Shown here piece after piece: positions 12,934 to 34,067 of a DNA stretch of 64,000 nt. The translations under genes and the position numbers were made by a program. The notes beneath the pieces were generated by a model that searched no databases, was not told the DNA's origin, and saw only the letters and a list, made by a program, of their open reading frames with translations. Each line of letters begins with the position of its first letter. Position 1 is the stretch's first letter. Origin of the DNA: an uncultured Clostridia bacterium (lineage in GTDB: Bacteria > Bacillota > Clostridia > UMGS1883); assembly GCA_947626145.1 (NCBI GenBank), contig CANQRB010000004.1:29250-93249 (forward strand). The letters run 5' to 3'.

Positions 12934-12997
12934 TAATGCGGTATGGAGAAGCTGTCTGTTGGGCTTGGCGAAGTTAGCATGGTATCACCTCAAAACG

Positions 12998-13040
12998 AAA
13001 CGGACGCTCCGCTTGGAACGTCCGTTTGATTATCTTTTTA
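12998..13040. terminator. Hairpin (aaacggacg...cgtccgttt) with a weak T-rich tail between convergent operons
   Basis: 9-bp stem and 12-nt loop, then gattatcttttt. Confidence 0.4.
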
Positions 13041-13092
13041 CTCTACCATTTTAACACATATATAACTCTCATTCAATCACATTTACTCTCAT

Positions 13093-13675: not shown

Positions 13676-13704
13676 AAAAATTCCTCCTATCATATTATGA
13701 TTGT

Positions 13705-13728
13705 ATTTTAGCACAATTATGCTAAAAT
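13705..13728 (-). promoter_or_regulatory. 24-bp near-perfect palindrome (ATTTTAGCACAATTATGCTAAAAT) overlapping the putative TA promoter (TTGCAA-17-TAAAAT); likely antitoxin operator
   Basis: 22/24 palindromic. The -10 TAAAAT and -35 TTGCAA, read on the minus strand, overlap it. Confidence 0.45.
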
Positions 13729-13777
13729 TGCAAGAGGAAATTTTTATTTTTATAAAGTGATTTCCTTGCTAAAGCTA

Positions 13778-13813
13778 CAAAAAATGAGCTATGGAGGGTT
13801 GGCTCCATAGCTC
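13778..13813 (-). terminator. Intrinsic terminator for the SLH-protease gene (11-bp perfect stem gagctatggag/ctccatagctc then ATTTTTTG on the minus strand)
   Basis: Perfect hairpin followed by a T run in the minus-strand reading direction, about 115 nt past the stop. Confidence 0.6.
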
Positions 13814-13927
13814 GATAACTTACGTAGTGCCTATATTGTACAGTCTTGCGCCTGACGCACCGCGGTCGCAAAGCTTCCTATTCGAGGGCAAATGACCTGA
13901 TAAGTGATAGCCTATTGCAAATCTAAA

Positions 13928-18259: not shown

Positions 18260-19069
18260 TTTTATTTATTCACTTTCTAATTGCAGGAAAACACCGCCAC
18301 TGTATGTCACGCCCCCTTTTGGGCGAATTTGTCCTCCGTACAATAAAAAATGCGCAGCTCATCGGAGCCGCGCACGAAAAATGCTTAGCTCCGAATTTAC
18401 TGCGACATAAATTAATATAACACAAAAGAAACGCATTTTTGGCACTCGCTCATTAAAAATGCAACCAGAGCGTTACAGGAGCAGCATTTTTACCAATGCT
18501 AATGTTGCTCCGGTTAGCACTTTTATACGTTAGAATGTTAAAACAATGATAGAAAATATAGGTACTCAAAAAAGAGCGCAAAAAGCGAACTTAATAAGCG
18601 TTTCTATATTAATCTATGTCGCAAATAAAGTATACCACACATTTTTCCGGTTGTAAAGTGTTTTTTTTTCGTAAATGAATAATTTTTTATAACATATTCG
18701 CCGCGAAACCCATCTAGGCGCTTATCTTGCTGCTGAACGGCTCCCCGACTGTTTTACAAAAGAGTCGAACATTGCACAAATTCGTTCTTCGTAGGAAGGA
18801 GCTGCCACAACATTTCCCTCCTTTTGCTAAAAATTGTTCTTGGTCGGTTTTCCCCCCCTTTGTAATACCGGAACAATTTAAGTTATACAAAATCGGAAAT
18901 TTTTTTAAATTATCTGAAAAAGTCAAAATAAAAAGGACAGATTAATATCTATCATTCTCAGTATTCAATTACATCGCCTTTAAAAATCCCCTCCGGCGCA
19001 TGAGGGGGTTTACGCCGGAGAAAATTTTATATATCAAAGAGGCCCGTGCCTCTTAATTTTTGCGGCCGG

Positions 19070-19744
19070 TTATGCCTGAGTCGCGGCGTCCGTCTTGACT
19101 CTGCGGAAGCGCACCAGACCCGTACGGTGAAGGGCAACCATTATTGCCGGGATAAGCACAAGTTGAAGTATTATTCCGGGGATGGCGTTAAGCACCGCAG
19201 TCTGCGCAGGACAAAAAACCTGAAAAGATGTCGATTTCGCCTGACTTTGTTGGTCTATGTTGCATGGCGATCCGCTTCTGTGCAAGCTCAAAGATTTCTT
19301 CGTCAATTAACGGCTCATGCGTATTAGGTAAGAAATAGCGTTGTTCTGCCTCTTTTTCGACTTATACGAAACCTTGTGTGTTTTCTCAGTGATGATATGC
19401 CCTAAATACTTTTACCGTGTCAGGATGTCAAACAGCGTTTTCTCCGGCCATGTGTAAGGAGCGATCAAGGCTTTCTGATGTCGCGCATTCCTCGTCCGCT
19501 CATAACGTAATGCACCGATTGTCAAAACCTTGTTGTCGTCAAGCCATCGCTGAATATCGCACATCTGAGTATCCTTCACATACATGACGAAAATCTGCTT
19601 GACTATGAGATGTATCCGTATGGATATTCCCCGTTGACGTGCTCGCCCTTTTGAGTCCGCGCCTGCTTTGCGGCTCGGTGGTTGTCGCTCGGCATATTCT
19701 CTCGGATATGTGTCATGGCACACCCGCCGTATGGCTCGGCGCAA
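19070..19744 (-). pseudogene. Low-confidence gene fragments: a C-terminal membrane-protein remnant at 19070-19306 and an unidentified remnant at 19412-19744, inside a 2.4-kb region with no intact long ORF
   Basis: Only short, mutually overlapping ORFs on both strands; mixed GC; no RBS-supported starts. Confidence 0.2.
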
Positions 19745-20366
19745 AAGGGATGTGTCCTTTGTTGCTGTTATGATGCCTCGCTGTTATCTTGCGGGCAAAT
19801 TTGTCGAGGTTCGTACAGATGGGGAGTATCGGAAAGGGGGATTTATGCGCCGCTCCAGGTCGTCGGGTCAGTTCACCTGAAAAGTCAGAATTTTTGTAAT
19901 GAGCTTCGTTTCCAGTCTGCTGATCTTCGTCTACGCACAAATGAGGATTGCCATACTCGTCGTTTTCGATGTACACTGTATGATCCAGAATACCGAAAGC
20001 CCTGTCCTCTTTGAAATAACTGTCTCAGACTGAAAGCTGATTCATTACTTCAACAGGAAATTCGACAAAGAAAATCGCCTGCCTGCACATGGCAGGCGGG
20101 CGAAACGGAACTAACAGAAGTATTTACGTGATTTATGTGTTCATCTTCCTCGGCAGGGTATCCCGCTTGCTGGGTCAGACTTCTTTTGAGCGAAGAACCA
20201 TTGCCGGAATTTGTCGATATGGAATAGGCTTCATGGCGGCTACCTCCTGTTAGCCGCCATACCTGTTAGCCTGCAGTTTCTTCCCTTGTATCAAGAGAAA
20301 TGGCAGCCTATGAAAAACAAGCATATAACCAAGAGCAGCAGTATATAGGCTCTGCGTCTATGCGTC

Positions 20367-20513
20367 TTACTCTTTTACAACCTCGATCCGTAGGTGTTCC
20401 TCGTTAATCAGCGTTTTGCGTTTGCATTTGGGACAATACAACGGAAAGTTCTCCAGAATGGTATCTTCCAGTATTTTAATTCGTGTTTTGCTTTTACAAA
20501 CAGGACACAACAC
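20367..20513 (-). CDS. Cys-rich KTR-type small zinc-ribbon protein (about 48 aa, non-ATG start GTG/TTG)
   Basis: Translation (M)LCPVCKSKTRIKILEDTILENFPLYCPKCKRKTLINEEHLRIEVVKE: two CPxCK motifs with the typical KTRxK spacing. Confidence 0.5.
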   Translation of the reverse strand: MLCPVCKSKTRIKILEDTILENFPLYCPKCKRKTLINEEHLRIEVVKE

Positions 20514-20716
20514 CAAAACGCTTTTATTTACTCCGATTCGAACTACTCCCTGCGAATTGCAATAAGTGTTTTAAACTATTACCCTCAACAAAGCACAACA
20601 ACCAGATATTTCCTGACGGCAATTTTTTGCGAAATGATTCCCGTAATTATCGTCGATGCATTGCTGTGAGCAGGTATTTATTTTGTAAAAAGTCGTTGCT
20701 GCCCGTATTTTAATTT

Positions 20717-21340
20717 TTACGATTTTTTGAACTTCGTTTTAAGCGCCTCAAAGTTTGCTTTCAGCTTGGCACGCTCAGCTTCCATTTTCTGCTTGCGTTC
20801 TGCGCTACGCTCAGCGTGCATCTTACGGCGAGCTTCGTCGGCAAGTTCTTTTTCTACGCGCATTGCTTCTTCTACCTCGTCCTGTACCAATGTAGCATCG
20901 CGTCGAAGAATCGTCGTTTGAAACTTATCGAACCGAAAATCCAGTGCATGATCTGTTTCCTCCTGCGCAAGGAGAAGAATCGCGACCTCACCGTCCTCCA
21001 GCTTTGATCCAACCGTTTCCAGCATTGTGTTGTTCCGATCCACATCATCAATGTCTTTGGCGCTTCCAATCAGATGACCTGTCATACCACCCAAAAGGAT
21101 GCCGAGAGGACCACCGAGAATTCCGATCAGACCGCCAATCAGACCGCCCGCGAGGGCGTCATCGCTGCTGTCCATGCCGCTTGTGAATGAGTCTATGGTG
21201 GAAATTATATTACCGTTTTTCTTTACAAGCGCCCCTTGCAATACGGTATATTGCGGCATAATTGGCTGCTTTTTGATTCCCATGTAGGCTTGATAGCCCT
21301 CGCTTTCCACATTGAACAAAATAGTTAAGACATTTTCCAT
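20717..21340 (-). CDS. Hypothetical protein with a glycine-zipper segment and a C-terminal charged coiled coil
   Basis: GGLIGGLIGILGGPLGILLGGMTGHLIG, then ERSAERKQKMEAERAKLKANFEALK. Confidence 0.5.
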   Translation of the reverse strand: MENVLTILFNVESEGYQAYMGIKKQPIMPQYTVLQGALVKKNGNIISTIDSFTSGMDSSDDALAGGLIGGLIGILGGPLGILLGGMTGHLIGSAKDIDDVDRNNTMLETVGSKLEDGEVAILLLAQEETDHALDFRFDKFQTTILRRDATLVQDEVEEAMRVEKELADEARRKMHAERSAERKQKMEAERAKLKANFEALKTKFKKS

Positions 21341-21538
21341 TCGTGAAACTTCCTTTCTTTTGTTGTTATTTTAATCACTAAATTGCTTTTGCCAATCTAT
21401 ACACGAAATCAATTATATTGCGCCTAAAAACTTTGTATATCGGTGTTTCGGGCAATAGGGGTAACCATTAACGGACGCCGCGTCATCTCGTATTTAATCG
21501 CAAGTTTTCCTCGATCAAAGAGAAACGTAATTGCCTTT

Positions 21539-21988
21539 TTATCTCCTGTTTGCTTTTTTCAGTTCCTTTTGGGCGGCTTTGATTTCCCGTTGCAGTTCGT
21601 CAAGTTCCTGTTCCAGTGCGTCGGCAATATAATCTCCGGTAATCACAGCGGCACGAATCATACAGGCGGTGCTTACAATGGCATCCTCCACCTCTTTTCC
21701 GAGTCCGAGGAGTTCCAGAGAACCTGTGCCGTTTTCATCGTACAGCACCACGTCCGGAATCCCGTTTTTATCCGTGTCTCCGAAGTACAGATTGAATTCT
21801 CCGTCGCCGGTGAGATCCACCGCCAGCGTGTCAATATCTCCGTCGCCGGTGGTATCAAGCAAAGCCAAATCCGCTTCTTTATCTCCGTCAATATCGATCA
21901 AAATCTCGTCTTTTCCACTGCGAAGCAGTGTCTTGTGCCAGTCGCGGTCAAATTTCATTTTAGTTTTCAATTTTCTGAGGGTTCCCAT
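21539..21988 (-). CDS. Hypothetical protein with Asp/Gly-rich calcium-binding-like repeats (DxDGD) and a C-terminal coiled coil
   Basis: DIDGDKEADLALLDTTGDGDIDTLAVDLTGDGEF...DTDKNGIPD resembles EF-hand/dockerin-like loops. Confidence 0.45.
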   Translation of the reverse strand: MGTLRKLKTKMKFDRDWHKTLLRSGKDEILIDIDGDKEADLALLDTTGDGDIDTLAVDLTGDGEFNLYFGDTDKNGIPDVVLYDENGTGSLELLGLGKEVEDAIVSTACMIRAAVITGDYIADALEQELDELQREIKAAQKELKKANRR

Positions 21989-22089
21989 AGGTCATTGCTC
22001 CTTTTCTTTTATTTTGGGCTTTTTCAGCCTTTTTTATAGGGTTATTCTGTCCGCAACACAAACAGGGGCTCTCTTTGCGGCATTTCTGG

Positions 22090-22401
22090 AGGGGATGATG
22101 CCGGCAATTTCTGACGCAACAAGCACCCCACCCCTGTGGTGGCCGGGTAGTGTTTAACTTCGAAATAAATCAATGAAATCATTAGTAATCTTATAACTTC
22201 TCCCTTGATTTATTCCGTTTCATCCGATCCCATTTTTGCAGCAGCCTCTTTATAGAAACATCCAAATATCCAATATAATTTTGCCACCGTAAAATCCGCT
22301 TATGATAGGGGCCTTCCTTTCCAAAAAACTTGTTGGATTGATACCGTCTCTGCCGCTTCTCACAAATCATGATAGCAGAGAAATCTAAACTGAAACGAAA
22401 C
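22090..22401 (-). pseudogene. Degenerate partial duplication scar: copies of the relQ-operon promoter motif, the GT8 3' end and the pgsA-like 5' end, fused and decayed
   Basis: 22300-22401 aligns to 24640-24725 (promoter/leader of the SAS gene). 22105-22290 aligns to 22830-23100 with indels. No intact ORF. Confidence 0.55.
22369..22401 (-). promoter_or_regulatory. Copy (a) of the shared promoter motif, in the degenerate duplicate: GTTTCGTTTCAGTTTAGATTTCTCTGC-TATCAT on the minus strand
   Basis: Matches the motif at 24693-24725, 28689-28721 and 31643-31676. Confidence 0.4.
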
Positions 22402-22414
22402 TGTCTTTTTTCTT

Positions 22415-22987
22415 TTATTTGTGCGGAACAGGATTGTTTTTACTCAAAATATGCTTATAGTATCGGATATAAAGGATGAGAGACATAATCATCAAACATC
22501 CGCTTATTAGAATTAGACCATTTGCTATTTTCAATGGGATATCGGGGAAAAGGATAAGCACAGATATAACAATATACAAAAAAACTGTGTTCAACTTTCC
22601 ATACCATTTTGCGCTGTTGACAGTATCTTTTCGTTTCAAAGCAAGATATCCAAGCGTGGCCATGCAGATTTCTTTTCCGATAAACAATACGATCAGAACA
22701 GACATCCACTTATACCGACTCGAAAGGCAGACAATAAGTACACATTGCGTCAATTTATCCGCTATGGGGTCTAATATCTTGCCAAGATCGGATACCATAT
22801 GGAACTTCCGTGCAATGATACCATCAGCAATGTCCGTAATTGCTGACGCGACAAGCACTCCTGTGGCTGCTTGGTAGTGTTTGACCCCGATATAAAGCCA
22901 TACGATCAGCGGGATCATCAGTAATCTTATAACGCTAAGCAAATTCGGTATGGTCAGGATTTGGTCTTTTTTGAATATCCTGTGCAT
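22415..22987 (-). CDS. CDP-alcohol phosphatidyltransferase family protein (PgsA-like)
   Basis: DIADGIIARK...GKILDPIADKL motif (D-G-x2-A-R...G-x3-D-x3-D) and multiple TM helices; RBS AGGGAGG. Confidence 0.8.
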   Translation of the reverse strand: MHRIFKKDQILTIPNLLSVIRLLMIPLIVWLYIGVKHYQAATGVLVASAITDIADGIIARKFHMVSDLGKILDPIADKLTQCVLIVCLSSRYKWMSVLIVLFIGKEICMATLGYLALKRKDTVNSAKWYGKLNTVFLYIVISVLILFPDIPLKIANGLILISGCLMIMSLILYIRYYKHILSKNNPVPHK

Positions 22988-23005
22988 TGAATATCCTCCC
23001 TTAAT

Positions 23006-23851
23006 CTATTCCGTTTCATCTGATCTCATTTTTGCAACAGCCTCTTTATAGAACACATCCAAATCTCCGATATAATTTTCTTTCCACGGTTTATTCCTTC
23101 CGCAGTAGTGAATTATAATGGAGTGCTTTCGTACCCAATTCAAATCAAGACTTTTTTCAAATGGACTGTGCACCCGATAAAGCCACTCTGTCATGTTATA
23201 TCGAAATGGGTCCAGCGTATAGATTTTGCTGCCATACAGGCTGCTGATAATGTCCTGATCCGGAAAGACAAGATGAGATTTTCTCTTTTCGATGAAGTGA
23301 AACACATCCGCATAGTCCTGCTCTTTCCGTAAAAGCGAGAGGTTCATGAGCAACACGCCGGAATTAATATATGGGCTGTTGTCATCCATATCCAGACGCA
23401 GTTCATTGAACTTATGGAGAAACCCAAGACTGTCAATGTGTGACGCTGCCGCATAATAGTATTCTTCCATCGAGGTCTGATACAGTGGAAGAATCGAACC
23501 ATTGAGAACAAGATCGGGGTCAAGATAGAGCACGCGGTCGAGAGTCTCCGGCAGATAGCGTGCAGCAAAAATACGGTAATAAATCTCTTGTGGATAGCGC
23601 GAAGTTGTTGGGGCCTCGTCAAGCGCCAAATAATCAGCCTTTATTGGGATCAGACATCCTCCTGCCTTAAAAAGCATTTTTTCGGTTGCTTTAAGCGCCT
23701 GCTTTGAAATTGAGGAATGAAGAAGATACACATGGAATACGCAGCCTGGGTTGGAGCGAATCAAGGTTGAAAGCATCACATTCAAATAGGGGATGTAGTT
23801 TTCATCCAAAGTAACAAGAATATTAATCGGATTTATCAATCCAGGATTCAT
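23006..23851 (-). CDS. Glycosyltransferase family 8 (GspA / LPS-galactosyltransferase-like)
   Basis: GT8 pattern NILVTLDENYIPYLNVMLSTL, DxD-like LDPDLV, YINSGVLLMNL. Strong RBS AGGGAGG before the internal ATG at 23851; the ORF-track start at 23899 lacks an SD. Confidence 0.8.
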   Translation of the reverse strand: MNPGLINPINILVTLDENYIPYLNVMLSTLIRSNPGCVFHVYLLHSSISKQALKATEKMLFKAGGCLIPIKADYLALDEAPTTSRYPQEIYYRIFAARYLPETLDRVLYLDPDLVLNGSILPLYQTSMEEYYYAAASHIDSLGFLHKFNELRLDMDDNSPYINSGVLLMNLSLLRKEQDYADVFHFIEKRKSHLVFPDQDIISSLYGSKIYTLDPFRYNMTEWLYRVHSPFEKSLDLNWVRKHSIIIHYCGRNKPWKENYIGDLDVFYKEAVAKMRSDETE

Positions 23852-23917
23852 TTTAATCCCTCCCTGTTTCTTATGTTGTATATAGTCTTCTTCACCCATT
23901 CACAAATCCTACCATTT

Positions 23918-24625
23918 CTATCGTGGTTTCAGAGTATTTTTATTTTGTTGGGTCTTTTTTAAGAGGTTATCCATTCTCCGATCAAGTTCCGCGCTGAGGT
24001 TTGCGCACTGATAAAGTTCCTCAGCCATTTCCGGGGTAAATGCAGAATCCTTTTTATAACGAAGCTGATGTTCAAGGCTGGCCCAGAAATCCATCGCTAT
24101 CGTGCGCAGCTGAATTTCTACTTTCATCATCCGTTTTTCATGTGCCAAAAAGATCGGAATTGCTACAATCAGATGCAGACTTCTATATCCGTTGGGTTTC
24201 GGGTTTTTTATGTAGTCCTTTTTTTCAATCAGGGTAATGTCATCCTGTATGAGCAATGCCTCTGACAGCGCATAAACATCGTCCGGAAATGAGCAGATTA
24301 CTCGAACACCGGCAATATCGTTTAGATTTTCTTCTATAGAGGAAAGTGTGGGCGGGATGCCCCGCCGCTCCAATTTTTCTTTTATGCTGCGGGGATTTTT
24401 CAGTCTGGTTTTGATACTGCTTATCGGATTACGGTCGAATTCCAAAGAATATTCTTCATTCAACACATTGAATTTTGTTTCAATCTCCATCATGGCACAT
24501 TTGTAATAGGACATCAGGCGGATAAAAGGTACAGATTTTCTCTGCATCCAGTCGATTGTCTGATCGTCCACAATAGAGAGCATTCGTGTTTTTATATTTT
24601 CATCCTCTTGATTCCATTCAGACAT
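23918..24625 (-). CDS. Small alarmone synthetase (RelA/SpoT-domain GTP pyrophosphokinase, RelQ/RelP/YwaC-like)
   Basis: Single-domain RelA_SpoT synthetase motifs (GVRVICSFPDDVY...YRSLHLIV...EIQLRT). The track start is TTG; the likely start is ATG 24625 with AAGGAAG RBS. Confidence 0.8.
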   Translation of the reverse strand: MSEWNQEDENIKTRMLSIVDDQTIDWMQRKSVPFIRLMSYYKCAMMEIETKFNVLNEEYSLEFDRNPISSIKTRLKNPRSIKEKLERRGIPPTLSSIEENLNDIAGVRVICSFPDDVYALSEALLIQDDITLIEKKDYIKNPKPNGYRSLHLIVAIPIFLAHEKRMMKVEIQLRTIAMDFWASLEHQLRYKKDSAFTPEMAEELYQCANLSAELDRRMDNLLKKTQQNKNTLKPR

Positions 24626-24692
24626 TCTGATCTTCCTTTCCAAAAAACAAAGCTTGTTGGATCAATACCGGCTCTGCCGCTTTTCGCAGGTA

Positions 24693-24725
24693 ATGATAGC
24701 AGAGAAAACTAAACTGAAACAAAAC
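24693..24725 (-). promoter_or_regulatory. Copy (b) of the shared promoter motif upstream of the SAS-GT8-PgsA operon: GTTTTGTTTCAGTTTAGTTTTCTCTGC-TATCAT on the minus strand
   Basis: Conserved TTTCnTTTCAGTTTAG block, then 8 nt, then a -10-like hexamer, at fixed spacing; 65-100 nt upstream of the start codon. Confidence 0.55.
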
Positions 24726-24726
24726 A

Positions 24727-24758
24727 ACGACGGACCCTTCGAAAAAGAAGAATCCGTC
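24727..24758 (-). terminator. Candidate terminator of the Hsp70 operon (gacggattcttctttttcgaagggtccgtc then TTGTTTTGTTT on the minus strand), abutting promoter motif (b)
   Basis: Nested hairpin followed by a T-rich tract in the minus-strand direction. Confidence 0.35.
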
Positions 24759-24818
24759 TGACCGCTTTACGGCGGAAGTAATAAACTAATTTTATAACCA
24801 TTTCGCAAGTTGACTGTA

Positions 24819-26588
24819 TCAAGCTGCAAGGCAGCGAGCGTTGGCGCTGGATTGCTCCAGCCGGTCAGATGCTGCTTTGATTGCAGCCATCTCACTTTCA
24901 GTTACGGTTTCCGGTTTATATTTGCCAAGCAACTTTCGTAATGCAGAACAGTCTTCTTTAATCTGCTTTTTTTCTTCTTTTTCAAGCTGCTTCCCAACTT
25001 TGTGCAATGCCTGTTCAGCTTCTGATAATACCTTCCCTGCGCGATTAACCATTTCTAAAGAGTTACGGCGAACACCATCCTGTGCCGCATACTGTTCCGC
25101 ATCGCGAATCGCCTGTTCAATCTCCGCATCGGACATTTTATCATTGTTCGAAATGGTAATAGACTGTGCTTTCCCCGTATCCAAATCTCTTGCGGACACT
25201 TTTAAAATTCCATTGGCATCAATGTCGAAAGTAACTTCAATCTGCGGCACTCCTGCGGGGGCTTTCTTAATTCCGTTAAGTTTGAATTTGCCGATGGTCT
25301 TATTATCGCGTGCCATTGGCCGTTCTCCTTGTAGAACATGAATTTCCACACTGCTTTGAAACGGTGCCGCGGTTGAAAAAATCTGTGAATAGTGAATGGG
25401 CAAAGTGGAATTTCTCTCCACAAGACGTGTTGCGACACCGCCTACTGTTTCAATAGAAAGGCTGAGAGGGGTAACATCCAAAAGAAGGATACCGTTTTCC
25501 GAACCGGCAATCTGCAGCGAACCGCCAGAAAGCGTGTCTCCCTGAATGGCGGCGCCCTGAGCAACACACTCATCCGGATTGATATTCTTTGACGGTATAA
25601 TACCGGTCAATTGACGCACTTTTTCCTGAACAGCGGGAATACGGGTTGCGCCTCCGACAAGGATGACCTTGCCAAGTTCGGATGGCGCAATACCAGCATC
25701 ATTCAAGGCGTTCTGTACCGGAATTGCTGTTCGATCCACAAGATCGCGGGTCAGCTCGTTGAATTTGGCACGGGTGAGGATAGTATCAAAGTGTATTATG
25801 CCGTCCTTTTCCTGGGCCAGGTACGGCAGGCTTATCATAGCGTTCTCTGAGCCGGACAGTTCCTTTTTTGCCTGTTCAGCCGCTTCACGCACACGCTGCA
25901 ATGCTACATAATCTTTTTTTACATCTGTATGATACTGCCTCTGAATTTCCGAAATCAAATACTCAGTGATACGCTCATCAAAGTCATCGCCGCCCAAATG
26001 GTTATCACCATTTGTTGCCAGAACTTCTATAACGCCGTCTCCAATCTCAATGATGGAAACATCAAAAGTACCGCCGCCAAGGTCATATACCATGACCTTT
26101 TGCTGTGTTCCGTTATCCAGCCCGTAAGCAAGCGCGGCGCTGGTTGGCTCATTAATAATCCGTTTTACATTTAAGCCTGCAATTCGCCCGGCATCTTTTG
26201 TGGCCTGTCGCTGAATATCGTTAAAATAAGCGGGTACAGTGATGACCGCGTCCGTCACTTCCTCTCCAAGAAAGGCTTCTGCATCCTTGCGCAGTTTTCG
26301 TAGAATCATTGCACTGATCTCCTGCGGCGTAAATCTTTTACCGTCAATATTGATAGTCCAATCCGTCCCCATGTGACGTTTCACAGACGAAACGGTTCGG
26401 GACGCATTAGTAACCGCCTGTCGTCTTGCCGTTTCACCCACTAACCGTTCACCGGATGCGGTAAAAGCAACAATGCTGGGAGTGGTTCTTCCGCCTTGTT
26501 CGCTTGGAATGATAACGGGTTTGCCGCCCTCTACAAAAGCGACGCAGCTATTCGTTGTTCCAAGATCAATACCGATTGTTTTTCCCAC
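24819..26588 (-). CDS. Hsp70-family chaperone, atypical (not in an hrcA-grpE-dnaK-dnaJ context); probable GTG start giving [12 protein letters not shown]
   Basis: Actin-like NBD motifs [13 protein letters not shown] and [12 protein letters not shown], an SBD and a C-terminal lid; RBS AAAGGATGG before GTG 26588. Confidence 0.85.
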
Positions 26589-26605
26589 AGTAATTCCATC
26601 CTTTC

Positions 26606-27406
26606 CTACATACATCTAAGGCAGCCAAATGGGCCGCATAGGAATTGCATGGCTAAAAAGCCAAAACATATTTTTTGTATATTAGTGGCTTCCATATCGA
26701 AGCCTTTTGCATTTTGTTCATAGGTTTGCTCTGAACGGCGAAATTTTTGCAAAAGCAGATGATAGGTGCGATTATTCGGCTCCATTTGTGATGCTCTCTG
26801 CATATGGTCGATTGCCTGAACGGTGTTACCAAGACCATGATTGGCAAGAGCGCTTAAATAATACCACCTTGCACCTCGTCCTACGCTCGGTATACGGGTC
26901 AAAATCCAAATTGCCTCTTGATAGCGATGGTTATTGATTTCAGTAATGGCCTGCCTGATTTCCATATTGTCGCCCGGCTCAGGCTGCGGATTCATAAAAA
27001 CGGCATCATCATTGCCGTTCCGTTCAAATCCAAATCCAAAAATATTCCCAAAGTCAAAGCCGCCAAAATCGCTCGACCAGCCACCCGGACCTCGATAACC
27101 GCCAGAGCCGCCCTGCCTTTCATATCCGGTTCCACTATAACCGCCGTTTTGATTTTCCGTATATCCCCCATATTGCCTACTCTGTCCGTAAGATTGGCGC
27201 TGCTGTGCTCGCCTTGCCTCATACTTCTGCGGATTCATCAACATATCGTAGGCTTCATTCACCGCATTCATTTTTTGGCTCGCGGTCGGATCATCGGGAT
27301 GCAAGTCAGGATGATATTGCTTTGCCTTTTGACGATATGCTTTTTTTATTTCTTCTTTAGTCGCTCCTTTAGGAACGCCCAGAGTTTGATAAGGGTCATT
27401 GACCAT
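26606..27406 (-). CDS. J-domain protein (DnaJ-like N-terminus, Gly/Tyr-rich linker, TPR-like C-terminus)
   Basis: J-domain with HPD ([34 protein letters not shown]); lacks the DnaJ zinc-finger/CTD architecture. Confidence 0.8.
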
Positions 27407-27409
27407 GGC

Positions 27410-28228
27410 TCACTTTTTCCTTTCCGTCTGCATTTGCCGGTTATATTTGATCCAAACGCCAGAATAAAGAATGTTCCTTAAAATGTGGGCGTCCTGGACA
27501 AGCGGCAGCGATTCAAAGGCTTCAGCAGCTTCTCCGAGAATGGTCTTCAGCATGGAGCGGATTTCTTCCTGACTCAGAGTGACAGAAGAAAAAGGATTAT
27601 AACTTCCTTTTTTCTGGTCATGCCTTAAATCAATCGCGGCATCGGCAAGATAGATATACTTTCCGATATGATAACCAAACTTCTGCAAACGCGGCATCCA
27701 GTGATCCGGCTCAACCACAAAAATCGTTGACATCAATCTGCCAAAGCTGTTGGCTGCCGCATCTGGAGAGGCGAAGCAGGATTTCTCAATTTCAGAGATT
27801 TCATTTATTTCCTTTTCGATGATCGAACACTGATCTTTTCTTGCTGCTCTGACTTCTTCATAAGCCTTTTTAAGCAGAGTGGCATAGCACTTGTGGGAGA
27901 TATTTCGATCATCGTTCCAGTCGTCAAGACATTTGAAGTATGTCAAGGCTATTGTCATATCGGCGGCATAGTCTATATATTTACCGGACAGATAATTATG
28001 TTTCTTGCATGGATGCACGGCACATCGCACCGCTTTGCTGGTTTCCTCCGGTTCATACAAGGATGATAAAAACATAGCCAAGAATGTCAGATCGTATGTC
28101 AGTCCCAATCGCGACCTAAATCCATACCTTTCCCCCAACGCATGACACAATCCGCAATAAAAGGCACGATACCGTTCTTTTTCTTCATCAGTAAGACCGG
28201 ATAAATTGGCCTGTATGATTCCAAACAT
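27410..28228 (-). CDS. Conserved hypothetical protein (Cys-containing; in my recollection the kind of DUF found next to non-canonical dnaJ/hsp70 genes in Clostridia)
   Basis: No recognisable catalytic motifs; tightly packed between the J-protein and Zn-ribbon genes (3-nt and 9-nt gaps). Confidence 0.55.
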   Translation of the reverse strand: MFGIIQANLSGLTDEEKERYRAFYCGLCHALGERYGFRSRLGLTYDLTFLAMFLSSLYEPEETSKAVRCAVHPCKKHNYLSGKYIDYAADMTIALTYFKCLDDWNDDRNISHKCYATLLKKAYEEVRAARKDQCSIIEKEINEISEIEKSCFASPDAAANSFGRLMSTIFVVEPDHWMPRLQKFGYHIGKYIYLADAAIDLRHDQKKGSYNPFSSVTLSQEEIRSMLKTILGEAAEAFESLPLVQDAHILRNILYSGVWIKYNRQMQTERKK

Positions 28229-28237
28229 AGTGCCACC

Positions 28238-28648
28238 TCATGTTTTGCGGGTTATTTTGCCTTTACATACCGGACAAGTGATTTCAATTTGCCCTTTTCC
28301 TTTCGGAACTCGTAGCCAACTTTTGCAGTTCGGACATTTATAATACCGATGCGTCTTTCGATCTCGCCACATATTTTTCCGACGTTTGAAACTCTGCTTC
28401 ACTTTGTCTGTATATTTCAAGAAAGTTTCCCGCTCCTTCTGTCGTTTTTCAAGATTGCGGGAAAAGCTGCGAAACATCGACCAAATCAACAGAATCATCG
28501 CAATCGGATATAGCAGAGGGACGAGCGGGGAAATGAGTACGAAAACCAGCACCGCAATCAATAGAAATTTGGAAAGCTCGTCATAGCCGTATCTTCCGTA
28601 CATCCATGCCTGCATTTTTTCTCCGAGCCTTTGCAACCATCGTTTCAT
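28238..28648 (-). CDS. Membrane-anchored zinc-ribbon protein
   Basis: One TM helix followed by CPNCKSW...CPVCKGK (two CxxC pairs). Confidence 0.6.
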   Translation of the reverse strand: MKRWLQRLGEKMQAWMYGRYGYDELSKFLLIAVLVFVLISPLVPLLYPIAMILLIWSMFRSFSRNLEKRQKERETFLKYTDKVKQSFKRRKNMWRDRKTHRYYKCPNCKSWLRVPKGKGQIEITCPVCKGKITRKT

Positions 28649-28688
28649 TTTCCGTTTCTCCTTTATCGGCTTACTCTTTTTACACCAA

Positions 28689-28721
28689 ATTTTACAGCAA
28701 GAATCTAAACTGAAACGAAAC
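28689..28721 (-). promoter_or_regulatory. Copy (c) of the shared promoter motif upstream of the ZnR-DUF-DnaJ-Hsp70 operon: GTTTCGTTTCAGTTTAGATTCTTGCTG-TAAAAT on the minus strand
   Basis: Same block and spacing as copies (b) and (d); the extended -10 TGTAAAAT lies about 40 nt upstream of the ATG. Confidence 0.55.
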
Positions 28722-28928
28722 TAAGGAAGAGCTTTCTTCCAGACTATTTTTTCGGTAAGTTCAGTTCTGATAGATTTACTGAATAGCCGCAGAAGTCATA
28801 GACCTACATAAAAAAGAACCTCCACAACGAAGGCTCTCACGGTAAATCTCATATTGGAAGCGGCAGTATGCCTCACAGCACACTGCCACTTTACGCTTCT
28901 CATGCTTAATTAAATGTCCCGCACTATT

Positions 28929-29714
28929 TTATCCAATGCCTCTGAAAGCATTAACGGAAAGAATCGCCACGCCTAAAACCGTCAGCACCACACCAACAGC
29001 CCTGTTGAGCGTTTTGGCGCTGGCCTTGTTTGCGAACAATGCGGCGATCCTTGCCCACAACAGAGTAAACGCCACGCAGAGAGCGAGACACCATAGGTCG
29101 GGCATATCGCCAATGGCAAAATGACTGACGGCGCCGGTCAGCGCGGTAAAGGTCATAATAAAGACACTGGTACCCACAGCGGTTTTTAATTCATATCCCA
29201 AAATGCTGGTCAACAGAAGCAGCATCATCATTCCACCGCCTGCGCCCACAAAACCACAAATGAAGCCGACGACCATTCCGCAGACAATCGACTGAATCGT
29301 CCGCTTTTTTGCGCTTACGACAGCCATCGCCTCCTTTGTGGTCATGACAGGTTTTACAATAAATTTGATGCCCAAAAGCATCGTCATGAAGACGGAGAAG
29401 CTGCCCATAGTGGCGTTGGAGACCAGACTGGCTACCCAACTGCCTACTAAGGTGAAAAGCAAGACGGCCACCATCATAACAAGCCCGTTGCGAATGTCGA
29501 TGTTTTTGTTTTTTCCATAGGTATAGGCGCTGACCGCACTTGCCAGCACGTCACTTGCCAGAGCGATGCCTACCGCTTCATAAGCCGGCATACCCATAAA
29601 TGTGATCAGCATTGGGCTGATGACTGCGGCGGCGCTCATTCCGGCAAAACCGGTTCCCAAACCCGCTCCGATACCTGCTATAAAACAAACTAAAACTTTT
29701 ACCCACAGATTCAT
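28929..29714 (-). CDS. TSUP/TauE-SafE family membrane transporter (likely start MNLWVK at 29714)
   Basis: Gly-rich TM helices (GIGAGLGTGFAGMSAAAV...GGGMMMLLLL) typical of TauE/SafE; the internal ATG gives the typical about 260-aa length. Confidence 0.7.
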   Translation of the reverse strand: MNLWVKVLVCFIAGIGAGLGTGFAGMSAAAVISPMLITFMGMPAYEAVGIALASDVLASAVSAYTYGKNKNIDIRNGLVMMVAVLLFTLVGSWVASLVSNATMGSFSVFMTMLLGIKFIVKPVMTTKEAMAVVSAKKRTIQSIVCGMVVGFICGFVGAGGGMMMLLLLTSILGYELKTAVGTSVFIMTFTALTGAVSHFAIGDMPDLWCLALCVAFTLLWARIAALFANKASAKTLNRAVGVVLTVLGVAILSVNAFRGIG

Positions 29715-29845
29715 TTTGCGTTTTTCTCCATATATTTTTTTATATTCTTTTCCACCCGCGTTATGTAGGACTGAAACTGCCGCTGACCTCTTTGTCAAGA
29801 TCGTCTGCGATGATATCCGCAAAATCGAAGCACTCTGATAAAAAA

Positions 29846-30940
29846 TCAGTTTTTCTGGCTTTCTTCTTCTGCATTTAGCTTTGATTTCGGCAATGTAACC
29901 GTAAACATGGTAAGATTGTTTTCGCTTTGAACCGAAACCGTTCCGTTGTGCAATTCCACCACTTTTTTGACAATTGCAAGCCCGATTCCGTTTCCCTCAC
30001 CGGAGTGTGAACTGTCAGCCTGATAAAATTTCTGAAAGATTCGTGATATACTTTCCGCAGGAATTTCCTCTCCCGAATTGATGATATCCACGGACAGGGA
30101 AGACGGTTGATTTTTAATATTGACTTCAATGACTCCTCCAGCGGGAGAAAATTTGATCGCGTTATCCAGCAGATTGATCCACACCTGTTTCAAAAGCTCC
30201 TCATTGGCAGAAATCCTGTATTCACCGAAATCCACTTTAAAGTCCAGTTGCTTTTTTTCCCACTTGTCGGCAAGCAACAGGATGGAAGACCGGATTTGTT
30301 CTGAAAGGTTAAACTTTACAACATCCGTTAAAATCGTTTGATTTTCTACCCGCGTCAGATTCAACACGTTTGTCGCCATATCAGAAAGCCGCAGAGATTC
30401 TTCTTCGATAACCGCCAAATATTCCCCTTTTTGTTCTTCTGTCAGGTTGCCTCGGCGAAGCAGCTTTGCAAAGCCGGCAATAGATACGATGGGCGTTTTG
30501 AATTCATGCGAAAAATTATTTACAAAATCCCCACGAAGCATCTCTGTATTTTTGAGTTCAGAAGCCATTCGATTGAAGCTGTGCGAAAGCTGCGAAAAAG
30601 TAGGATGTTTGGATATGGGCCATCCGAAATCCAATCGGGCACTGAAATCACCGGATGCCAGCCGATCGATTTGATAAATTACATTCCGCAGGGGGCGGGC
30701 GGATATTTTACTGGATAAATAGGCAACAATGACACCGACAATATTACTGATGACGATCATGTAGAGGATGATAATACCGATGTTTGATCGGATATCGGTA
30801 TCAAGCGTGACAACTTGAAAATGTACCAGCATATAAATAATAGAAGCGGTTATTGAAGTAATAATAAATTGAATGAAAAAAATAAGTGTCGATATTAAAA
30901 ACGTGAGCGCAAAATAATGTTTTCGATTTTGTTTGTTCAT
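29846..30940 (-). CDS. Intramembrane-sensing sensor histidine kinase (two N-terminal TM helices with a short loop, HisKA, HATPase_c)
   Basis: H-box SHEFKTPIVSIAGFAKLL; N/G1/G2 boxes (LLDNAIKF, GEGNGIGLAIVKK); the extracellular loop is only about 14 aa. Confidence 0.85.
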   Translation of the reverse strand: MNKQNRKHYFALTFLISTLIFFIQFIITSITASIIYMLVHFQVVTLDTDIRSNIGIIILYMIVISNIVGVIVAYLSSKISARPLRNVIYQIDRLASGDFSARLDFGWPISKHPTFSQLSHSFNRMASELKNTEMLRGDFVNNFSHEFKTPIVSIAGFAKLLRRGNLTEEQKGEYLAVIEEESLRLSDMATNVLNLTRVENQTILTDVVKFNLSEQIRSSILLLADKWEKKQLDFKVDFGEYRISANEELLKQVWINLLDNAIKFSPAGGVIEVNIKNQPSSLSVDIINSGEEIPAESISRIFQKFYQADSSHSGEGNGIGLAIVKKVVELHNGTVSVQSENNLTMFTVTLPKSKLNAEEESQKN

Positions 30941-31611
30941 ACTTTTTTCACCGCCTTATATCCGAGCCCGCGCACGGATTCGATATCAAATTCTTCCCAA
31001 CCCTCGAACCGTTTGCGGAGCCTGCCGATGTGAACCGTCACAGTTTCCCACCCGGTATCGCTCTCAGCGCCCCAGATTTCATCCATCAGTTGAATCCGTG
31101 TAAAAATCTTTCCGGGGTATGACAGCAATTTATAAAGTAACAAAAATTCCTTTTGCGGGAGTTCTTGTGTCTCGCCGTTTTTGGTCACGGTAAAGGAATC
31201 GTAATCCAAAATTACATTTCCAATCGTCATTTTACGTTCGTTGGCAATTTGAGCGCGGCGTAGAAGTGCTTTGATTCGCCAGAGCATTTCTTCCTCATCA
31301 ATCGGTTTTGTCATGTAGTCGTCAATCCCTAATGAAAAACCTTTATGTTTATCTTCGGGGAGCTGTTTTGCCGAAACCATAAGAATGGGAAGATTGTTCT
31401 TGCTTTCGCGGAGGATTTTTGTAAATTCATATCCGTCCATTTTCGGCATCATTATGTCGAGAATCACAAGGTCAATATACTCTTTATCCATTACATCGAG
31501 GGCGTCTTCACCGTTTTCCGCAGTAAATACAGAATAGTGCTCCGTTTCAAGCACGGCTTTGAGCAGCCGGCGTGTATTTTTATCGTCGTCTACAACAAGA
31601 ATTTGGAACAT
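30937..31611 (-). CDS. OmpR-family response regulator (REC plus winged-helix), 4-nt overlap with the kinase gene
   Basis: Receiver motifs DDD/D55-like (LVILDIMMPKMDG) and T/K; C-terminal trans_reg_C (TVHIGRLRKRF...LGYKAV). Confidence 0.9.
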   Translation of the reverse strand: MFQILVVDDDKNTRRLLKAVLETEHYSVFTAENGEDALDVMDKEYIDLVILDIMMPKMDGYEFTKILRESKNNLPILMVSAKQLPEDKHKGFSLGIDDYMTKPIDEEEMLWRIKALLRRAQIANERKMTIGNVILDYDSFTVTKNGETQELPQKEFLLLYKLLSYPGKIFTRIQLMDEIWGAESDTGWETVTVHIGRLRKRFEGWEEFDIESVRGLGYKAVKKV

Positions 31612-31642
31612 TGTTTACACCTCCTAATAATCAATATAAGAT

Positions 31643-31676
31643 AAGATAACATACAAATCTAAACTGAAAAGAAAGT
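31643..31676 (-). promoter_or_regulatory. Copy (d) of the shared promoter motif upstream of the RR-HK-TauE operon: ACTTTCTTTTCAGTTTAGATTTGTATGT-TATCTT on the minus strand
   Basis: Same block and spacing; sits 32-65 nt upstream of the RR start codon. Confidence 0.55.
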
Positions 31677-32096
31677 GTGCGAGTTTAATCCCCAAAATTT
31701 ATTATTTCGTTCAGCAGGCTTTTTCGCGTCTTTGAGCAACAGCCACATCTTTCCCATTTTATCGACTCCTGCAATACGTCCGGCAAAACAGTAATAATTT
31801 AATCATGCGGGGAGAGATACCCCATTTTTCGCTGCCTATTTGAACGTCATGTAATTAAAATATCGCACCTCCACATATAAAATTATATTTCGTTATCTTG
31901 AAGAAAGCAAGTGCATTTGATGAACATTAGATGAATTATTTACCCTCGCTACTGAAACTGTAAAGACATATCCAAATAAAGAAAGGGACTGTAAAATGGA
32001 TCAATTTCAATAAAGCGGACAGAAAAACATAAGATGGCAGGAAATTATGTAAAATATTCAATATCCATATTTCTCATAAAGTATATCACATAAAAA

Positions 32097-32318
32097 TCAT
32101 AAAAGATATTTGTCTTGATTTTCGATTACATATTGAAGCCATTCCTCTGGAGTAGGAATGTCGTTTGAAGATGGTATTTTTTTCCACTGTGCTCTAATTT
32201 CAGGATTTGAACTGGTCATTCCAAATTTTATTCGCTCTGAAATTATAACTTTAATTTCGTCAACCGTCATATTCCTTTTCTCAGCTATTTCGGCTAATGT
32301 TATTTTTATCTGTTTCAT
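32097..32318 (-). CDS. Small hypothetical protein (73 aa) divergent from the XRE regulator, in AT-rich DNA
   Basis: Strong RBS AGGAGG 6 nt before ATG; no recognisable motif. Confidence 0.5.
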   Translation of the reverse strand: MKQIKITLAEIAEKRNMTVDEIKVIISERIKFGMTSSNPEIRAQWKKIPSSNDIPTPEEWLQYVIENQDKYLL

Positions 32319-32472
32319 GGACCGCCTCCTATTAATTTATTGTTTGTATTATTCCATAATATAACCGTATGCCCTTTGCGGGGCGTATATAATCTACTGA
32401 TTATGACTATTATATCACATTTTTGTGATTTAGAATAGTATTAATAGAAATTATTTTTAGAAGGTTATCTTT

Positions 32473-32787
32473 ATGGATGTACAAAAGCGCATCAGGTAGT
32501 TGATGGCGGAAAGAGGCTGGTCAGACTATAGGCTTGCAAAGGAGTCCAACCTCTCTCACTCAACTATAACGAATATATTCAACAGAAATAACGCCCCAAC
32601 GCTGCCAACATTGGAGTCCGTATGTTCCGCTTTGGGGGTAACCATGTCACAGTTTTTCACTGAAGGCGACGAACCCGTTGTGTTGAGCAGCGAACAAAAA
32701 ATAATACTTGATAGGTTCAACACGTTATCACCGACTCAGAGAAAAGTCATTATTGAACTGCCTGGCAATATGAACAAAGGCACATGA
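32473..32787 (+). pseudogene. XRE-family (Cro/C1 HTH) transcriptional regulator interrupted by an in-frame TAG at codon 9 (32497-32499); an N-truncated product could initiate at ATG 32503
   Basis: ATG 32473 with GAAGG RBS encodes MDVQKRIR-TAG-LMAERGWSDYRLAKESNLSHSTITNIF. The canonical HTH N-terminus spans the stop. Confidence 0.55.
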
Positions 32788-32841
32788 TGTCATAACAAGA
32801 CAGAGACCGGTCGATGAGCTTTTTTCGACATTGCTAAAAAA

Positions 32842-32870
32842 CCTGCATACATTTCTGTGTGCAGGTTTTT
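32842..32870 (+). terminator. Intrinsic terminator after the XRE gene (cctgca-12 nt-tgcagg then TTTTT)
   Basis: 6-bp stem plus T5; A run upstream. Confidence 0.5.
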
Positions 32871-32880
32871 CAAATATAAA

Positions 32881-32994
32881 AATCTAACGATTACTCAATA
32901 ATCCAACGATTACCCCAAAAAACTAACGATTTCCCATAAAACCAACGATTTCCCATAAATCCAACGATTTCCCATAAATCCAACGATTACACGG
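32881..32994. repeat. Iteron-like array: about six contiguous direct repeats of a 19-20-bp unit (consensus CCAACGATTTCCCATAAAT)
   Basis: Units at 32881, 32900, 32922, 32941, 32961 and 32980; the core AACGATT recurs every 19-21 bp. Confidence 0.7.
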
Positions 32995-33079
32995 CGGCGA
33001 GTTAGGATGGATAATTTCCGAAAAGCAAAAACTGCATTTATTGCCTCCGTAAGGTGCGGAAAAATTATGCCGACCATAC

Positions 33080-33107
33080 AAAAAAGCCGATAATATCGGC
33101 TTTTTTG
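33080..33107. terminator. Bidirectional intrinsic terminator (aaaaaagccgat-AAT-atcggcttttttg)
   Basis: Perfect 7-bp GC-containing stem flanked by A6 and T6. Confidence 0.5.
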
Positions 33108-33153
33108 CACAAAGAAAGAACCTTGACTTTGTATCAAAATCAAGGTTCTTATT

Positions 33154-33246
33154 TGGCGGAGAGAAAGGGATTCGAACCCTTGATCGGGGTTAACCGATAC
33201 ACGATTTCCAGTCGTGCGCCTTAGACCAGCTCAGCCATCTCTCCGC
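33154..33246 (-). tRNA. tRNA-Ser (anticodon GGA), class II with long variable arm, CCA encoded
   Basis: Minus-strand read GCGGAGAGATGGCTGAGCTGGTCTAAGGCGCACGACTGGAAATCGTG...GGTTCGAATCCCTTTCTCTCCGCCA: acceptor, D, anticodon (CU-GGA-AA), long extra arm, TΨC GGTTCGAATCC. Confidence 0.85.
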
Positions 33247-33259
33247 GCTGACAAACGGT

Positions 33260-33288
33260 ATTATAGCACATATTTTGCCGTTTGTCAA
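33260..33288 (-). promoter_or_regulatory. Consensus promoter for tRNA-Ser (TTGACA-17-TATAAT on the minus strand), with 8-bp inverted repeats (acaaacgg/ccgtttgt) flanking the -10
   Basis: -35 tgtcaa at 33283-33288 and -10 attata at 33260-33265 in plus-strand coordinates; TSS a few nt before the tRNA 5' end. Confidence 0.55.
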
Positions 33289-33302
33289 GGACTTTTTTCA
33301 AT

Positions 33303-33339
33303 TCTTATATCAAAAATTTATATCTTATATCAAAAATTT
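33303..33339. repeat. 17-bp direct repeat x2 (CTTATATCAAAAATTTA) upstream of the tRNA promoter
   Basis: Two exact copies separated by 3 bp. Confidence 0.6.
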
Positions 33340-33368
33340 AAACAAAATTTAGAAAAGAATTAGGAAAA

Positions 33369-34067
33369 TCATTTACAGGCCTCAACGAAGCTGAGAAGGA
33401 TCTTAAACTGATCCTCATCACCGCGCCAGGAAAATTCCGGGTGCCACTGTACCGCCTGAACAAAGCGTTTCTCCGGACAGTATACGGCTTCGATCAGGCC
33501 GTCGGGAGCGGCGGCCATCGCCTTCAGCCCCGGCGCAAGAGCCTTTATGCCCTGATGATGATAGCTGTTCACACTCAGGATATCCTTCTGCAAAAGATGC
33601 CGCAGCGGTGAACCGGGCACGAGACAGACCTCGTGCCAGCCGCGGTCATAGGGCGGCACCATTTTATGACAGACGGCATCCTCCTTTTGAGACGGGATAT
33701 CCTGATACAGCGTACCGCCCAAGACCGCGTTGATAAACTGTATTCCACGGCATATGCCGAAAACAGGCCTGTCCAGCTCAAAGGCCTGACGGAACAGCTC
33801 CGTTTCCAACCGGTCACGGGGCGGATAGGGAGCGCCGCAGGAGCGCAGCCTTTTCTCACCGTAAAGCGCCGGATCCACGTCCTGACCTCCGGTAAACAGG
33901 AAGCCGGAGCACAGCTCCGCCATCTCCCCCACGCTGTCGGGGTCAAAGGGCAGGATCACGGGCAGCGCTCCGCAGGCCGTCAAGGCGTCCACATACCCCG
34001 GCAGCATCCAGATACTGTCTTTTTCCGTATCAAAAAGGGGCACAACGCCGATAACAGGTTTTTTCAC
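33369..34067 (-). CDS. Class I glutamine amidotransferase-like / gamma-glutamyl hydrolase (peptidase C26, PuuD-like)
   Basis: GICRGIQ catalytic Cys motif and HH near the C-terminus (WHPEF). Confidence 0.8.
   Translation of the reverse strand: MKKPVIGVVPLFDTEKDSIWMLPGYVDALTACGALPVILPFDPDSVGEMAELCSGFLFTGGQDVDPALYGEKRLRSCGAPYPPRDRLETELFRQAFELDRPVFGICRGIQFINAVLGGTLYQDIPSQKEDAVCHKMVPPYDRGWHEVCLVPGSPLRHLLQKDILSVNSYHHQGIKALAPGLKAMAAAPDGLIEAVYCPEKRFVQAVQWHPEFSWRGDEDQFKILLSFVEACK

Follow-up and report, generated by a model that had tools for sequence, protein, structure and literature searches.

Arrays of short direct repeats close to a recombination site are known from the sub-terminal repeats of IS607-family serine transposons and from the cox boxes of P2 Cox and 186 Apl, where several molecules of a recombinase or directionality factor are loaded on them; the Cox and Apl sites also act as promoter operators. 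Closer in sequence is the repeat (AACGATT N12)3, which precedes HsdC/type I restriction-modification operons in four Acholeplasma species and was predicted to form C-protein sites (Fisunov et al., 2017; PMC5282649). Here we analyse an array of six AACGATT repeats beside a transfer RNA (tRNA) gene, tRNA-Ser(GGA), in 64,000 nucleotides of an uncultured Clostridia bacterium (contig CANQRB010000004.1, positions 29,250 to 93,249; this whole stretch is called the window and is numbered from its first letter). A literature search by motif strings and keywords returned one relevant paper, that of Fisunov et al. (2017), and no description of a cassette system; the array family appears to be widespread in Firmicutes and, in the literature searched, essentially undescribed as a system. 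We propose that the array is an accessory protein-docking array that would organise the tRNA-proximal end of an integrated mobile unit, a prediction from sequence comparison that we regard as having about an even prospect of being right.

Within the window, the array consists of head-to-tail direct copies of a 19-20-bp unit (Table 1), called by Tandem Repeats Finder (TRF) at 32878-32990 with a period of 19 and 5.8 copies. The core YYAACGATTWC starts at 32884, 32903, 32923, 32942, 32961 and 32980, a spacing of 19/20/19/19/19. A sequence-only reading of this DNA had described six contiguous 19-20-bp direct repeats, which the TRF call and the core positions bear out, and had judged the array not to be CRISPR-like, which agrees with its contiguous units and lack of unique spacers. 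A 19-mer of the repeat gives 3 matches where 0.02 are expected, all of them in the array and none elsewhere in the 64 kb, and no further cluster of YYAACGATTWC cores occurs within the window. The copy number varies by whole units, with six copies in the window and in L002, and five in L003 and L005.

The tRNA-Ser(GGA) gene, also reported beforehand, is complete and is the sole match of an Rfam search. Since it lies on the minus strand, its 3′ CCA end points toward the array across 161 bp of spacer. Immediately next to the CCA stands a hairpin whose loop contains TTGTATCAAAA (33129-33139); read on the minus strand, this hairpin was identified in a terminator scan as the terminator of the tRNA. 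Homology between the window and metagenome contig L003 reaches 33156 and ends at the CCA, so that the 161-bp spacer travels with the array and not with the tRNA. The window array and its closest relatives lie downstream of convergent genes, between two terminators and without an outward promoter. Just upstream of the tRNA-Ser promoter, 33303-33340 holds two exact 20-bp copies of TCTTATATCAAAAATTTATA, each containing TATATCAAAAAT, which is similar to the hairpin-loop/end motif TTGTATCAAAAT across the tRNA.

Table 1. Coordinates of features of the window.
Feature	Position	Strand	Evidence or remark
Low-GC accessory tract, ends at tRNA-Ser CCA	4200..33153	.	GC profile, open reading frame and Pfam content
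Large serine recombinase gene, decayed	18990..19744	- (tRNA strand)	Pfam Recombinase fragments, tBLASTN
HTH_17 "DNA-binding protein" gene remnant, frameshifted and stop-containing	31680..31851	-	69.5% nucleotide identity to a Tn1549 (vanB element) gene
73-aa gene, no Pfam match	32097..32318	-	Conserved divergent partner of the XRE gene
Imperfect palindrome ATCACA-N4-TGTGAT	32414..32429	.	Divergent XRE/small-gene promoter; position conserved among XRE homologues
XRE/HTH_3 regulator gene	32473..32787	+	ATG 32473; followed by terminator hairpin 32840-32870
Array 1 (6 direct copies)	32878..32992	+	TRF, core positions, family consensus ATTTAACGATTAC
Spacer from array to CCA, 161 bp	32993..33153	+	Holds hairpins 33080-33106 and 33116-33150
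tRNA-Ser(GGA), complete	33154-33244	-	Rfam match; 3′ CCA end toward array
tRNA-Ser promoter, consensus TTGACA-17-TATAAT with TG	33260..33288	-	

To place this array among others, the pattern AACGATT-N12/13-AACGATT-N12/13-AACGATT was scanned against one genome per species. At least 120 loci were found, against about one expected by chance (2 strands × 596 Gb × 4 gap combinations / 4^21). About 50 matches from other phyla, among the matches listed, are perfect tandem repeats of unrelated make-up, and at least 72 Firmicutes loci carry imperfect 3-7-unit arrays like that of the window; the 72 Firmicutes-type loci compared below were picked by eye among the matches listed. They come from Clostridia (Acutalibacteraceae, Oscillospiraceae, Christensenellaceae, Ruminococcus and others), Bacilli, Acholeplasmatales and Mollicutes, and we refer to them as group A (Clostridia), group B (Bacilli/Acholeplasmatales) and group C (nearest to the window, and the window's own group). 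Their 233 units give the family consensus listed in Table 1. Outside the core that was searched for, TT at -3/-2 is present in 92-96% of units in groups A and B and in about 70% of those in group C. Core positions that are fixed and a linker that is free, recurring every two helical turns, give these loci the look of a protein-binding array.

All-against-all BLASTP clustering of the open reading frames (ORFs) within 4 kb of the 72 arrays revealed no conserved neighbouring protein; beside the array, about 70 related loci have either single small genes or defence genes. The cargo of group A mostly lacks a Pfam family (one DMP19-like protein and some lipoprotein-like proteins were seen), and for this reason we do not call these genes immunity genes. 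Separately, viral contigs L133-L135, L141, L144, L150-L154, L157, L159-L161 and L165 carry 3-5 copies of GA(T/A)AACGATTTTAWGG at a 20-bp spacing between two structural genes. These have the AACGATT core in common with our family but not the tRNA context, and they probably represent an unrelated phage site.

The partner that recurs beside array 1 is the end of a stable RNA gene. A 3′ end of a tRNA or transfer-messenger RNA (tmRNA) gene faces the array within 420 bp in 42 of the 72 loci (42 of the 61 that could be evaluated); a cassette junction motif stands in place of the tRNA in 12, the flank is too short to judge in 11, and neither a tRNA/tmRNA nor a junction motif is found in 7. About 17 tRNA/tmRNA identities are represented, the commonest being Ser (four anticodons, 19 loci) and tmRNA (8), with Ala, Thr, Leu, Lys, Gln, Pro, Val, Trp, Met and His as others. 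The distance from array to CCA is 113-115 bp in group A (longer where there are extra inserts), 151 or 161 bp in group B and 153-196 bp in group C, and it is far more constant than the distance from the array to any gene start. The spacer is conserved between loci with different tRNAs, and the similarity ends at the CCA. In all 10 related loci that were compared, a hairpin abuts the CCA; the stems are all different and the loop is conserved as TNTATCAAAA, of the form T(T/C)(G/T)TATCAAAA. Read in the tRNA direction, this hairpin is an intrinsic terminator, and the window shares the design. Long variants of the spacer between array 1 and the tRNA contain extra short periodic motifs in both orientations, 3-7 copies each, with ATGATAT/GATATA in one class and GTGAAAT/ATTTCAC in the other (L020, L045 and L084; L055, L122 and L123). 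They could represent binding arrays of yet another, third type, or else form a structured RNA.

Comparison of the related loci reveals a common architecture. Beyond array 1, after one small gene or up to 4.5 kb, lies a second family of ~20-bp-periodic arrays, with the motif GGGGGTGCA in group A and GGGTACGAA, GGGTGCGTA, GGGTGTGCA or similar motifs in group B. In the tRNA direction, the order of a unit is CCA, hairpin, an optional spacer with array 1, promoter, gene or genes, array 2, junction and then the next unit. Array 1 has AACGATT in 3-7 copies every 19-21 bp, and the hairpin loop carries TTGATACAA. The cassette promoter fits sigma-A (for example TTGAAT-17-TAAAAT), and the last repeat overlaps its -35 box. 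The last copy of array 2 pairs with an inverted copy to form a hairpin. A comparison of consensus sequences for relatedness between arrays 1 and 2 was not convincing; their motifs differ. Other arrays with a period of ~22 bp occupy the array 2 end position in L190 (~1850-1960, GGGTTCAA) and L068 (~3790-3890, ATGGGTTCA), so the end arrays seem to have many specificities.

The distal junction consists of TTGTAT(C/T)AAAAT (TTGTATNAAAAT) followed by 12-15 nt ending in CCA. These 12-15 nt are alike among cassettes and unlike the resident tRNA. In our own reading, the distal end may mimic the part of a tRNA from T-loop to CCA, with G..TC.AA in register at -23 to -16. The TTGTAT and ATACAA motifs are symmetric, 18-19 bp on each side of the CCA. 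Two units stand in tandem in L126 and L035, at tRNA-Ala and tRNA-Ser respectively, and in each pair one unit is without array 1.

Several observations point to mobility of these units. A 0.9-kb cassette holding array 2, a 176-aa gene, array 1 and the spacer is found at tRNA-Ala(GGC) in L020 and at tRNA-Ser(CGA) in L045, with 92.7% identity between the two. L003 contains the window module (at least 30478 to 33156) with 98% identity, next to a 45-nt Lys-like tRNA 3′ fragment and a different island with a DUF234 ATPase and a PAPS-reductase-like gene. Further insertion scars lie between the module and the tRNA in L082 and L096. As to the enzyme, the prophage in L156 carries two tandem large serine recombinase genes, and its end, ...GTATCATTACGGCGCTCTTTCACA, abuts an array-1 module with nothing in between. 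Other copies of it, with 96-99% identity, stop at this very base, but four other terminator-like hairpins come next in them, which means that the prophage inserts at several such sites. In L132 and L171, serine recombinase genes are present in the unit adjoining an array-bearing cassette. Three independent cases (the L156 family, L132 and L171), to which the window adds a pseudogene, suggest that elements with large serine recombinases may share this junction, and in none of these is the recombinase inside an array-bounded cassette. A site of ~52 bp with outer inverted motifs, used at many tRNAs, suits large serine recombinases better than tyrosine integrases, we infer.

The docking role that we propose for the array is favoured because the CCA/hairpin end is the only universal partner of array 1, and because its distance to this end is fixed within groups and its relation to genes is not. 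A unit would insert precisely behind the CCA of a tRNA or tmRNA gene, and new units would insert either at the true tRNA end or at the tRNA-end mimic of a cassette already present, which would give rise to tandem cassettes. Units without a recombinase of their own would be moved by serine recombinases supplied in trans. The array may then offer several docking sites, spaced by two helical turns, to a sequence-specific DNA-binding protein whose gene lies elsewhere, and the docked protein would organise the end of the element for recombination or for the directionality of recombination. The same protein could also control an outward promoter in those cassettes where the last repeat and the -35 box overlap. 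A broader proposal, which we hold more tentatively and consider possible but distinctly short of probable, is that of a previously undescribed Firmicutes cassette system, in which promoter-bearing mini-cassettes and larger defence islands are placed after the CCA of essentially any tRNA/tmRNA gene or carried mimic, are moved in trans by the paired large serine recombinases of resident prophages, and use two 20-bp-periodic arrays to dock a factor that couples silencing to recombination.

A number of points weigh against the docking role. A motif screen found almost no recombinase within ~4 kb of ~70 arrays, the ends of the serine-recombinase prophages are themselves without arrays, and no large serine recombinase is known to require accessory DNA sites. 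Some cassettes lack array 1 altogether, and the window lacks both a second array and a partial tRNA-Ser copy. The 72 loci are, moreover, a choice made by eye. A purely regulatory role would fit equally well with the position of the array in groups A and B, where the first cassette gene follows it immediately, and with its overlap of the -35 box in group A.

The main rival is accordingly a purely transcriptional operator, to which a small repressor of XRE or C-protein-like type, from a gene in cis or at another site, would bind cooperatively so as to silence or time the first operon, the nearness to the end reflecting no more than cassette compactness. Identical repeats, repeating AACGATT N12 at least three times as our array does, have been predicted to be C-protein/HsdC sites (Fisunov et al., 2017; PMC5282649). 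In 8 of the 16 group B loci, an HsdC-like helix-turn-helix protein of 63-95 aa is encoded by the first gene behind the array, so that these loci show the placement in the promoter of a controller-led operon, and the last repeat of group A arrays extends into a good -35 box (TTGAAA/TTGAAT-17-TATAGT/TAAAAT). The published gel-shift assays, however, covered the Mycoplasma GTGTTA motif only (PMC5282649), and the array occurs without any helix-turn-helix gene in half of group B and in all group A cassettes. In window-type loci, where the array lies between two terminators, there is no outward promoter for it to control, and the constancy of the distance to the CCA/hairpin over that to the gene start is also at odds with an operator. 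We judge a purely regulatory array to be improbable, although it is the strongest of the alternatives. An alternative is that the repeats are arm-type sites of a lambda-like att site, so that a tyrosine integrase with two DNA-binding domains, an excisionase or both would bind the two arrays on either side of a core located at the 3′ end of the tRNA. Units do lie at tRNA or tmRNA 3′ ends, with repeat blocks on both sides of the junction within ~30-250 bp; L082 and L096 have a classical 21-22-nt T-loop-to-CCA duplicate of the resident tRNA beside the module; and excisionases such as P2 Cox bind direct-repeat arrays. Yet only one tyrosine recombinase was encountered in ~75 loci, a doubtful one beyond smpB, and no tyrosine integrase gene was found in the window. 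The two arrays have different motifs, the same cassette family occurs at many different tRNAs, the distal pseudo-tRNA ends are unlike the resident tRNA, no tRNA-Ser copy is present in the window, and the conserved inverted motifs ~19-25 bp from the CCA are too far out for the core sites of a tyrosine recombinase, all of which leaves this explanation with a rather small chance.

The sequence-only reading had also considered replication-origin iterons, and the remnant of an integrated plasmid as one source of the locus. Tandem direct repeats of 19-20 bp in AT-rich DNA do resemble classical iterons and some ParR centromeres, and fall within the 17-22-bp range of such repeats, which would make the array an origin or partition centromere left by an integrated plasmid or phage. 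Pfam scans of ~38 ORFs at 0-34 kb, however, gave no Rep, Par or phage replication gene, no replication gene stands beside the ~70 related arrays, and comparison with 72,556 plasmids and 50,697 phages showed no similarity other than a 189-bp Tn1549-like pseudogene. This origin is very improbable, and we rejected it for want of a Rep gene and of any plasmid or phage match; what persists of the earlier idea is an array at the boundary of horizontally acquired DNA by a tRNA gene, in a decayed copy. Lower still do we rate a multi-site end of a Tn7/Mu-type DDE transposon homing to tRNA genes, which is barely credible at this locus. Its sub-terminal sites would be contiguous as here, the outermost copy on the reverse strand reads 5′-TGTAATCGTTGG (starting TGTAATCG), and Tn7-like elements target the downstream flank of RNA genes. 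On the other hand, the 161 bp from array to CCA are mobile together with the array, which places the mobile end elsewhere than at the array itself; the window has no inverted cluster, no transposase gene lies near any array and the terminal TGT is not conserved in the family. This candidate too was rejected, on the absence of the inverted cluster and the movement of the spacer.

The regulator beside the array also had to be considered as its binder. The divergent XRE/small-protein pair noted earlier is present (Table 1), with a premature in-frame TAG at 32497-32499 (codon 9) of the XRE frame; metagenome contig L005, which is 98.8% identical, has CAG at this codon, and translation could possibly restart at TTG 32500. 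Eight XRE homologues with 60-72% identity were looked up, and their downstream ends differ or are absent. An AACGATT array follows the XRE gene in the window, L171 and L058; a TGCACCC/GGGTGCA hairpin with TTGTATCAATTT...GCCA follows it in L167 and L194; the GGGTTCAA array in L190; a Tn916-like end in L172 and L187, with int and xis genes beyond it in L172; and nothing recognisable in L166 and L193. Dozens of cassettes without XRE, in turn, bear AACGATT arrays. These differing ends, together with the palindrome in its own divergent promoter, make XRE unlikely as the array binder, and we rejected an operator of the neighbouring XRE as the main explanation; the palindrome is the likelier candidate for the XRE operator, judged from its sequence and conserved position. 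The array, as had been suspected, is most plausibly a protein-binding array tied to an integrated element, but the iteron, plasmid and adjacent-regulator versions of this idea are not supported.

The array stands at one end of a much larger acquired region. The earlier description of a 1.7-kb AT-rich island captured only the most AT-rich end at the tRNA: GC content is 0.32-0.49 from ~4.2 to ~33.3 kb, compared with 0.57-0.60 on both sides, giving a tract of ~29 kb, which is probably composite. When the window was searched for the far end of the element, no partial tRNA-Ser copy, TTGTATCAAAA motif or other 17-24-bp periodic array was convincing; TTGTATAAC...ACA at 18890-18861 (minus) is the only, and weak, candidate. 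The window copy is decayed, with a stop codon in XRE and with HTH_17 and serine-recombinase pseudogenes. The HTH_17 remnant is the third member of an HTH_17/small gene/XRE end module, and leftward beyond it lie a response regulator, a histidine kinase, TauE, DUF5685, DnaJ, Hsp70, RelA_SpoT and others. For the recombinase pseudogene, 19191-19361 matches Pfam Recombinase with 23.5 bits, above the family cut-off, and 19412-19744 matches weakly; in tBLASTN, 18990-19606 has 23-27% identity to residues ~195-404 of the L156, L132 and L171 recombinases.

Other parts of the window were noted in passing. Within the island, 24819-28228 (minus) is an accessory operon of Hsp70, a DnaJ-domain/TPR protein and a DUF5685 protein, which looks like a non-housekeeping chaperone module, adjoined by a small RelA/SpoT-type synthetase at 23918-24643. 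A ParE toxin/Phd-YefM antitoxin pair occupies 13093-13714 (minus), next to a 1443-aa secreted thermolysin-like protein with SLH domains (13928-18259), in the most AT-rich part of the island (GC 0.32-0.38). Elsewhere, 53173-53677 contains two copies of a 253-bp unit with 81% identity in a local low-GC patch, and 59590-59910 is a long GC-rich 33/66-bp periodic repeat within a 907-aa ORF (59563-62286, minus), where it probably encodes a Pro/Gly/Ser-rich repetitive protein segment.

If the proposed system is real, gut Clostridia and Bacilli/Acholeplasmatales would have a route of cassette capture as modular as integrons but built differently, with the tRNA CCA as a universal landing site for self-contained promoter/terminator cassettes that borrow their recombinases. 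The accumulation of small orphan genes and of defence systems (restriction-modification, helicases, toxin modules) by tRNA/tmRNA genes without a nearby integrase would then be explained. The loop TNTATCAAAA together with an AACGATT array offers a simple search signature for such islands in metagenomes. The comparison also points to serine recombinases with a tRNA-end target, which bears on site choice in that enzyme family. For this genome the message is modest, the locus being a decayed remnant.

We place the array family among staphylococcal cassette chromosome (SCC)-like islands, tRNA-linked islands and integron-like cassettes. The repeat itself is that of "motif 2" of Fisunov et al. (2017), with the same sequence of AACGATT direct repeats and 12-nt spacer. 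There it is a promoter element in four Acholeplasma species only, and the tRNA tie, the second array, the cassettes and the spread in Clostridia were not noted; the window array, in contrast, is not upstream of any gene. With SCC/SCCmec of staphylococci, inserted at the 3′ end of rlmH/orfX, our units have in common that they insert at one fixed point, the 3′ end of a conserved gene, that they accumulate in tandem and that many members have no recombinase of their own, and the autonomous members with two tandem large serine recombinase genes recall L156 and L132. Here, however, the target is the CCA end of many tRNA/tmRNA genes, single-gene cassettes of ~0.9 kb are possible, and the ends bear 20-bp-periodic arrays and a terminator hairpin that SCC lacks.

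Islands built by repeated tRNA/tmRNA integration, with recombinase-less cargo units and partial tRNA copies at their borders, are also represented by the tycheposons of Prochlorococcus and by the accretion of cis-mobilizable elements (CIME) and integrative and conjugative elements (ICE) in streptococci. Those duplicate the 3′ part of the resident tRNA, and each type is bound to one tRNA, whereas our units join at the CCA, carry a conserved mimic as their distal "tRNA end" and have repeat arrays at their ends. Integron cassettes are likewise small, often single-gene and tandem, with a hairpin-forming recombination end and no recombinase inside, but we found no intI/attI platform here, and each of our cassettes has its own promoter and terminator and ~350 bp of structured non-coding ends, with a recombinase class that is probably serine and not tyrosine. 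IS607 repeats and cox boxes, finally, have a period of ~10-12 bp compared with 19-21 bp here, and no IS607 TnpA or Cox-like gene accompanies our arrays.

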